DNA of 57,328 bases, from assembly GCA_003599335.1 (NCBI GenBank), contig QZJN01000010.1, forward strand, positions 1 through 57,328, read 5' to 3'. Each line of letters opens with the position of its first letter. The stretch's first letter is position 1. Shown one piece after another: positions 49,167-49,570 of this stretch. The notes below the pieces were generated by a model. The model saw only the letters and a list, made by a program, of their open reading frames with translations. It searched no databases and was not told where the DNA came from. The stretch is from Candidatus Parcubacteria bacterium. Its GTDB lineage: Bacteria > Patescibacteriota > Minisyncoccia > SURF-38. The translations under genes were made by a program, and so were the position numbers.

Positions 49167-49570
49167 CAGCAGGCTCCGAATATCTCAGTGGCCCCATCGC
49201 CAACAGCGGTGGGGACAGCCGGAGGTTAGGGCTGGTTTCGGGTTTGTCGGACCTGCTGAGAGGAAGTAAAAACTCTGCCATTCAGATGACAGAGAGGGAT
49301 TCTCGGGAACGAGATACCCCATCAGATTCAGGCACGCGTCCGCTCTCGCAGACGTCGCGACGTTCCATGCGCCACCAGGCCATCGGACGTCGGAACCGCG
49401 CTCGCGCCGCCACGACATCTGGGCGGCCTCGCACGTGGCACACGTCTTTGAAGGGGGGAGCTGCTGCCGAATCTCAGCGGAAAGCTTTCAAACCCGGATA
49501 CTTAACCTCTGGCCCGCTGCAATCGTACCAATTGATAAGCCGTAGCCGTTTTTTGGCTACGGCTTTCTTT
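49167..49570 (+). ncRNA. Putative ~400-nt structured ncRNA next to the RT (no family recognised)
   Basis: GC-rich island with at least 8 visible helices, its own promoter and a terminator (AAGCCGTAGCC/GGCTACGGCTT + TCTTT, 49537-49570). Confidence 0.65.

Follow-up and report, generated by a model that had tools for sequence, protein, structure and literature searches.

What is specified by the GC-rich stretch of DNA that adjoins a reverse transcriptase (RT) gene in the genome of a Candidatus Parcubacteria bacterium? The stretch, at positions 49167-49570, lies in a contig of 57,328 nucleotides (nt) that was analyzed at its full length and is referred to here as the window (contig C10); the genome comprises 690,606 bases in 14 contigs and is rated 100% complete. 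A first-pass annotation, made from the letters alone, had proposed that the stretch specifies a noncoding RNA (ncRNA) with competing long-range folds, either a pseudoknot or a switch. We find that the flagged region is a conserved ncRNA, and we consider it probable that this RNA is the msr-msd partner of the adjacent 308-residue RT (48179-49105) and that the two represent an effector-less, retron-type family in Patescibacteria. The features described below lie on the plus strand unless otherwise indicated.

The predicted fold of the region is considerably more stable than that of shuffled sequence. RNAfold assigned the plus strand of positions 49106-49575 a minimum free energy (MFE) of -197 kcal/mol, compared with -155 +/- 6.6 kcal/mol for 100 dinucleotide shuffles (z = -6.4), none of which was as good; the minus strand gave a z of -3.8. 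The GC content is 0.60-0.64 in 49200-49500, as against approximately 0.38-0.42 in the surrounding genes. A broader GC-richer island (48200-50500; 0.45-0.64 versus the same 0.38-0.42) spans the RT gene, the ncRNA, and an open reading frame (ORF) of 80 codons that lies beyond them.

Homologs of the RNA were found next to genes for related RTs. An nhmmer search with the flagged stretch returned matches in three loci, each adjoining an RT gene, and the alignments revealed compensatory changes within two small hairpins; by nhmmer, the stem-loop SL1 (see below) was the portion most conserved in sequence. A metagenome scan identified 453 stretches that encode a relative of the RT, and 80 loci were kept (loci are designated by L numbers). 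From two of the metagenome homologs only, L011 and L022, we built a covariance model, R1, and every RNA alignment reported here rests on that model and hence on its two founding sequences. R1 matched the window over the full length of the model (1-246 of 246) at 49181-49525, which defines the conserved core of the ncRNA, with a score of 48.5 bits and an E value of 5.4e-14. At E <= 1 the model gave 44 matches over 86 sources; at E <= 5e-4 it gave 23 matches in 22 sources, out of 23 selected, all of them on the RT strand and all adjoining the RT gene. A prefiltered genome search with R1 gave no match in the host genome itself, and the filter seems to overlook RNAs that contain a long insertion. 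When the genomes of 40 relatives were searched at the DNA level, the host genome alone was matched. A search of positions 45000-51000 against Rfam at E <= 1 yielded no relevant family, the output consisting of two tRNAs and chance-level matches; the sole match to touch the stretch was to a plastid group II-D1 intron on the minus strand (49533-49693; 29.9 bits versus a gathering score of 140).

The substitutions among the homologs track base pairs. In the covariation alignment, 92.3% of 1051 cells were in standard pairs, compared with 65.8% after shuffling, and 58 of the 62 pairs exhibited changes on both sides. The covariation score was 0.482 (0.174 for shuffled alignments), a value reached in none of 500 shuffles, and it fell to 0.07-0.125 when the partners were slid by 1-3 columns. 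Because this alignment had been fitted to the structure of the model, we added an alignment-free test, in which the 66-nt segment preceding the linker in each homolog was paired as a duplex with the 60 nt that follow box1 (both elements are described below) in every homolog (n = 24). The cognate duplex between the strands a1 and a2 was the most stable of the 24 in 13 of 24 homologs and ranked third or better in 19; the clear failures were four loci (L060, L055, L031, and L063) whose anchor had missed a2. In the helices, G.U and U.G cells numbered 105 and A.C and C.A cells 23, and this excess of G.U fits pairing as plus-strand RNA. The stability of the fold and the covariation both bear out the structured RNA that the first-pass annotation had put forward.

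How is the RNA organized? Its 5' portion contains a hairpin, P0 (49192-49200 with 49206-49214; family helix 1), for which 4 of 4 pairs are doubly changed and 92.9% of cells are paired. Next comes strand a1 (49218-49246), which forms a long closing helix with strand a2 (49489-49513). The outer part of this helix (49218-49230 with 49501-49513; family helix 2) has 12 of 12 pairs doubly changed and 98.1% of cells paired, and the inner part (49236-49246 with 49489-49499; family helix 3) has 11 of 11 doubly changed and 92.4% of cells paired. A linker box, L (CCTGCTGAG; 49252-49260), pairs with box1 (CTCAGCGG; 49473-49480) as 49253-49259 with 49474-49480 (family helix 5; 4 of 5 pairs doubly changed). 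Enclosed by these helices are two small, msr-like stem-loops and a long hairpin. The first stem-loop, SL1 (49273-49281 with 49286-49294; family helix 6), has 9 of 9 pairs doubly changed and 94.3% of cells paired. The second, SL2 (49295-49298 with 49317-49320 and 49300-49305 with 49310-49315; family helices 7 and 8), has 9 of 10 pairs doubly changed, with 87.2% and 97.0% of cells paired. The long hairpin (49324-49474) is GC-rich and msd-like, begins with a pyrimidine-rich segment, and is presumably the template; at its base (49325-49331 with 49467-49473; family helix 9) 9 of 9 pairs are doubly changed, its interior varies, and its length lies between about 50 nt (L011 and L022) and about 150 nt (the window).

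Several short elements complete this anatomy. Box2 (CCGCTG; 49514-49519) lies directly 3' of a2 and resembles L, and box0 (CTCAGTGG; 49184-49191), which precedes P0, is a near copy of box1; residues 49186-49191 of box0 pair with box2 in the MFE structure. G residues follow a1 in the window (49247-49250), and a conserved AGC is found there in many homologs. In all 23 aligned RNAs, 11-16 of the 16 nt that follow the 5' arm of the long hairpin (49332-49350 in the window) are pyrimidines, often in a TTTCTTTTCTT-like run. This tract may serve as a stop signal for the RT or may specify a purine tract in the DNA product.

The nine pairings to which the first-pass annotation had assigned coordinates were all recovered upon recomputation, in place or within one base. 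They include P0 (nine pairs), SL1 (CTCTGCCA/TGACAGAG at 49273-49280/49287-49294, five pairs by a duplex routine, with one C.A mismatch in the longer alignment of the model), the base of the long hairpin (49324-49334/49465-49474; 10 pairs and one bulge), and a pairing between the leader and the linker that we call H1 (49167-49179/49247-49258; 12 pairs, one bulge, -19.4 kcal/mol). The short complementary motifs it had named were likewise located (AGACGT at 49350 and ACGTCT at 49442; CGACGT at 49358 and ACGTCG at 49387; GCCGCC at 49406 and GGCGGC at 49422), and SL2 was absent from its list. What changes is how some of these pairings are to be understood. The two described as crossing the first helix, 49218-49229/49502-49513 (the duplex routine counted 11 pairs; a terminal G.U makes 12 positions) and 49237-49246/49489-49498 (10 pairs), are both halves of the family's closing helix, in which 23 of 23 pairs are doubly changed, and so the a1/a2-like inverted repeat that had been suggested to close a template domain is borne out. 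Pairing of 49253-49261 with 49472-49480 (nine pairs), which had been offered as an alternative, is instead the nested, inward continuation of the closing helix (family helix 5), with 94.7% of cells paired. As for CAGCGG (49204-49209) with CCGCTG (49514-49519), the six pairs do exist, but the partner conserved in the family is a second CAGCGG, at 49475-49480, which had been overlooked.

Is the neighboring RT of a kind that would use such an RNA? The protein matches Pfam RVT_1 at 4.8e-15 and displays an RYLDD box, the sequence N82-I-L-R-H86 (NxxxH spacing) in region X, and I226-T-G228 in region Y. The hallmarks of retron RTs, as given in the portion of Mestre et al. [quoted passage not shown] Among 41 relatives of the RT, H86, D180, D181, and G228 are invariant, and N82, Y178, and I226 are retained in at least 90%. 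A profile of the RT family was compared with solved structures, and the best matches were to the retron RTs Ec83 (1.4e-30) and Ec86 (about 3e-29), followed by Ec67, Ec78, Kva2, and Eco8; matches to solved retron RTs spanned residues 27-282 of 299. For structures that are not of retrons, the same profile gave 1.6e-9 with a group II intron RT, 2.2e-7 with Drt2, in a match limited to residues 130-242, and 3.8e-6 with Drt3a. All 25 of the best PADLOC matches listed were to retron RT models (1.7e-26 and weaker), the retron types all matching about equally weakly (1e-26 to 1e-17). The NCBIfam model retron_St85_RT matched at 6.8e-25, under the cutoff of that model, and the NCBIfam Drt2 model gave 19.7 bits, its cutoff being 390. 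The matches to solved retron RTs together with the NAXXH- and VTG-like positions place the RT, as judged from its sequence, in the retron lineage and outside the typed clades, and its scores beneath the NCBIfam family cutoffs argue for a distinct clade.

We found 101 relatives of the RT at E <= 1e-5, the closest of which was just 48% identical, and the named nearest relatives are annotated as Patescibacteria or Parcubacteria. An RT match was present in 6 of 401 sampled genomes of the phylum, the host genome included, and a genome scan with the single RT protein as query returned two distant loci only.

Sequence signals that flank the RNA suggest how it is transcribed. A promoter-like site, TTGCAA-17-TATATT (49132-49161; 9 of 12 matches in a consensus scan), lies between the RT gene and the RNA, and a TTTGCAAA stretch in the promoter region aligns with the homolog in L014; transcription would start near 49167-49170. 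At the other end, an intrinsic-terminator-like hairpin (49537-49565) with a 12-pair stem, seven G-C pairs, and the tail TCTTTATTAT presumably marks the end of the ncRNA. By these signals the RNA of the window is transcribed as a separate unit, downstream of the RT gene, whereas in most relatives the RNA lies upstream and appears to be cotranscribed with the RT. In most loci, inspection by eye revealed a GGAGG-like site and the RT start tens of nucleotides or less after the RNA. Loci with the RNA downstream of the RT comprise, besides the window, L033, L053, L055, L031, L063, L051, L030, L045, L057, and L019. As judged from a quick maximum-likelihood tree that comprised 32 RTs, the RNA changed sides at least four times, two of these changes being forced by well-supported branches. 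One RT clade of eight is entirely of the downstream type, and the window falls among relatives of the upstream type. In the downstream clade we could discern by eye a TATAAT-like box at the RT gene's 3' end, as well as terminators after the RNA, features that match the window's own promoter and terminator. One further arrangement was observed: at L006:1805-2381 (minus strand), from the same phylum, the ncRNA is present twice in tandem (35.4 and 25.2 bits), with both copies upstream of one RT gene.

What, then, of the competing folds? In the ensemble computed for 49167-49570, a1/a2 had a probability of 1.0, L/box1 of 0.997, and box0/box2 of 0.945 (pair 49188-49517); H1 and box1/box2 each had a probability of 0.0. 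H1 is nonetheless strong as an isolated duplex between leader and linker (-22.9 kcal/mol, z = -3.7, matched by none of 200 shuffles). An equivalent at p < 0.05 was found in 1 (L006:2146) of 10 other full-length homolog rows, two of which are near-identical, and H1 is peculiar to the window. When either H1 or box1/box2 was forced to form, one and the same alternative structure resulted, which contains both and which lies above the MFE by 8.4 kcal/mol for 49167-49570 or by 10.4 kcal/mol for 49167-49525. The claim of competing folds survives in altered form: H1, from which the crossing arose, is not conserved, but a conserved competitor exists that the first-pass annotation did not list, namely, the pairing of box1 with box2 around a2.

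The consensus of box1 is TCAGCGG and that of box2 is CCGCTGA, and on the alignment 86.2% of box1/box2 cells were paired, compared with 30%-45% when the partners were slid. Because both boxes are mostly invariant in sequence, the alignment provides almost no covariation for them. We also compiled a list of box pairs by eye and checked their complementarity by script, because automated location of the end of a2 by duplex folding over-extended or chose the wrong blocks and a loose hairpin search was non-significant per locus. All 25 curated pairs were complementary and in the right order, and they enclosed 19-53 nt that include a2. In three loci the boxes are wholly replaced and yet complementary: L058 (CCCCAATA/TATTGGGG), L030 (CAACGATC/GATCGTTG), and L048 (TTCGGCG/CGCCGAA). 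Single compensations occur in L071 and L051 (TCAGCGA/TCGCTGA) and in L055 and L063 (CAGCGT/ACGCTG). Complementary to L on one side and to box2 on the other, across a2, box1 thus has two conserved, crossing partners. Judging from geometry, with box2 abutting a2, the full a1/a2 helix and the full box1/box2 helix are unlikely to coexist. The family carries a conserved alternative pairing around a2, for which a regulatory role is a candidate.

If the RNA is the msr-msd partner of the RT, it could work by analogy with retrons as follows. The two small stem-loops would be recognized by the RT. The closing helix would place a priming G, by way of its 2'-hydroxyl (2'-OH), near the boundary between a1 and L, beside the 3' end of the template hairpin, and the long hairpin would be copied into a small single-stranded DNA. 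The closed form (a1/a2 with L/box1) would be the ground state and the form competent for priming. An open form, in which box1 and box2 form a hairpin with a2 in its loop, accompanied in the window by the helix H1 between leader and L, would lie about 8-10 kcal/mol higher and could serve as a folding intermediate or as a switch.

Several observations weigh against assigning the pair to retrons. The RT scores far under the NCBIfam retron cutoffs (87.9 versus 235 bits), its region X reads NILRH rather than NAxxH (the A being replaced by I or V), I takes the place of the V of VTG, and region Y has the family consensus ING. The use of a branching G as primer and the production of multicopy single-stranded DNA are steps that we infer by analogy with retrons. 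The fitting of the covariation alignment to the R1 structure inflates its pair counts, a bias that is only partly countered by sliding the partners and by the alignment-free test. For box1/box2, 1 of 7 pairs was doubly changed, and 34 of 500 shuffles matched the covariation score; the diverged cases were chosen by eye; the pairing is missing in L019 and amounts to only 4 bp in L064, with L057 and L013 left unscored. An unanchored, per-locus hairpin shuffle test was non-significant for most loci, and an automated, anchored test gave p < 0.05 in 6 of 26 loci, with a2 boundaries that were often wrong. A last point of this kind is that no conserved effector or fused domain was found in the neighborhoods of the loci. 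Clustering of all ORFs of at least 70 residues in 86 loci (blastp E < 1e-8, coverage of at least 50%) gave a single cluster that spanned many loci, namely, that of the RT (86 of 86); the next largest, from nine loci, was antisense inside the RT gene, and the remaining clusters came from four loci or fewer.

Gene maps around the RT varied from locus to locus, and tblastn searches with an upstream 118-residue ORF, the adjacent protease, the 80-residue ORF, and a 158-residue ORF that overlaps the RNA (ORF158) found no match in other homologous loci. We had entertained the adjacent trypsin/PDZ protease as an effector like that of type XI retrons and rejected it: it is an HtrA/DegP-type housekeeping enzyme, a terminator-like hairpin follows its gene, and it has no relative in the 86 loci.

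We turn now to other explanations for the RNA. One that would extend, rather than replace, the retron-type assignment is that the RNA is a working switch or pseudoknot, toggling between the closed form (a1/a2 and L/box1) and the open form and thereby gating priming or access of the RT, an idea that we entertain tentatively and regard as unlikely. In its favor, both partners of box1 are conserved, three lineages have swapped their box sequences and kept box1/box2 complementarity, and H1 and box1/box2 occur jointly in a single coherent alternative fold that lies 8-10 kcal/mol above the MFE; moreover, H1 could be the first to form as the RNA is transcribed, both of its strands being made before a2. 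On the other hand, the alternative pairs have an equilibrium probability of 0.0 in the window, H1 is not conserved, the covariation of box1/box2 is weak, and blind, per-locus tests were mostly non-significant. Also, since box0 resembles box1 and L resembles box2, the complementarity of the boxes may partly be a by-product of like sequences at both ends of one long, rod-like helix. (Copies of box0 were seen by eye in some homologs only.) Somewhat more doubtful is the broader proposal that box0, L, box1, and box2 together form a switch of three or four boxes, in which L and box2 both complement box1 and the RNA flips between a closed rod that is competent for priming and an open form with two hairpins, so as to time or limit synthesis of complementary DNA (cDNA) where no protein effector exists, or else that the L and box2 repeats let the RT copy the unit repeatedly. 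Repeated copying recalls DRT2, which consists of an RT and an ncRNA and generates cDNA by rolling-circle synthesis. The module described here is also an RT and an ncRNA without a conserved effector, and L and box2, which are alike in sequence, flank the unit and could act as direct repeats for template jumping, giving concatemeric cDNA with an endless ORF. In the window itself the distance from L to box2 is 261 nt (3 x 87), and one plus-strand frame is free of stops across the unit (49253-49519). That frame is not a property of the family: the repeat distance is not divisible by 3 in any of eight other full-length homolog rows, and in seven of the eight every frame of the doubled unit is interrupted by stops; the exception, L006:1805, keeps one sense frame open. 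The template hairpin varies about threefold in length, and the Drt2 match (2e-7) is far below those of the retron RTs (1e-30). Hence we rejected a DRT2-type endless ORF, which we regard as highly improbable.

The same rows bear on the scarcely credible alternative that the region is protein-coding. ORF158 (49112-49588) does exist and spans the whole region, and codon-level conservation of it would have spoken for a protein. What is conserved is base pairs, not codons, and in seven of the eight other full-length rows each sense frame of the homologous RNA has 2-7 stops when the unit is doubled. ORF158 has no match in Pfam, PADLOC, or other families, a tblastn search of 90 loci with it matched only two copies of the window itself, and GC-rich sequence is poor in stop codons by composition. 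Lacking a family match, relatives, and a conserved frame, ORF158 was rejected as a protein. The first-pass annotation had also raised the possibility that the 3' end folds back, box2 on box1, so that its 3'-OH serves as primer for reverse transcription. In the 25 curated homologs box2 does pair with box1, directly downstream of the template hairpin, but the position of box2 does not coincide with a conserved 3' end. In loci of the upstream type a GGAGG-like site and the RT start follow box2 within approximately 10-40 nt, as seen by eye, and in the window and the downstream clade more sequence and terminators come after it. Because the RNA continues in this way into the ribosome-binding site and start codon of the RT or toward a terminator, there is no conserved 3' end near the pairing site. 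Furthermore, the closest solved relatives are retron RTs, which, as described in part of PMC7736814, prime from the 2'-OH of a branching G. Self-priming by fold-back is thus very unlikely, and an msr-msd RNA paired with a retron-type RT remains the explanation that we favor.

The surroundings of the RT and its RNA are as follows. Upstream lie a tRNA-Arg(cct) gene (46559-46631), the 118-residue ORF (46653-47009), which is without a family match, and the gene for the HtrA/DegP-type protease with its PDZ domain (47006-48052); the terminator-like hairpin 3' of the protease gene is at 48084-48109. Downstream of the RNA, a promoter-like site (49575-49603) precedes the 80-residue ORF (49656-49898), which has no family match. 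This ORF thus has its own promoter-like site and also a terminator, and the ORFs beyond it are likewise without family assignment. The window carries 15 tRNA genes in its 57 kb, and genes for tRNA-Ala(ggc) and tRNA-Arg(cct) border a gap at 46.1-46.6 kb, just upstream of the block formed by the protease and RT genes.

How does the family compare with known systems? The retrons described in the portion of Mestre et al. [quoted passage not shown] The family resembles them in having complementary a1/a2 ends, two short stem-loops, and one long, variable hairpin; in an RT that is closest to solved retron RTs; in the NxxxH between RT2 and RT3 and the I-T-G triplet with its invariant G in RT7; and in an RNA that directly adjoins the RT gene. 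Unlike most described retrons, it has, across 86 loci, no third gene and no fused domain that is conserved. It differs as well in an extra 5' hairpin before a1, in an extra inverted repeat (box1/box2) that brackets a2, in the placement of the RNA, which in the window and in the clade of eight is located downstream of the RT and has a promoter and a terminator to itself, and in its host phylum, Patescibacteria. The same portion of PMC7736814 discusses orphan retrons, such as the Retron-Eco5 (Ec107) branch, leaving open whether these have effectors in trans or a different mode of action. Orphan retrons are alike in combining an RT and an ncRNA without an identifiable associated protein, but the Ec107 branch has another RNA family and belongs to another phylum, and the PADLOC model RT_Ec107-like matched our RT at only 1.1e-21. 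With DRT2 the family shares a two-part module of an RT and a structured ncRNA and short repeats that flank the copied unit; it differs in that its RT is distantly similar (2e-7) and in having no conserved endless reading frame. According to part of a review (PMC8632793), diversity-generating retroelements represent about 80% of RTs in Patescibacteria. Our literature search, which did not extend to the supplementary tables of PMC7736814, where such RTs may be listed, found no paper that connects retrons with Patescibacteria.

In summary, the RT and RNA of the window belong to a family that is spread over the ultra-small Patescibacteria, in which the RNA lies on either side of the RT gene and a conserved inverted repeat surrounds a2. 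Retrons are viewed as three-part defense systems and are also used as tools for genome editing. The family departs from the three-part view, in that a retron-type RT and an msr-msd architecture are kept and a conserved effector is not. If the alternative pairing around a2 is functional, it would mean that a minimal retroelement of two parts controls reverse transcription at the level of its RNA, and should either a switch or template jumping prove true, then regulation or the shape of the product would be encoded in the RNA of an effector-less retron. With its compact RT (about 300 residues) and well-defined RNA, the family provides a clean system in which to test these ideas.

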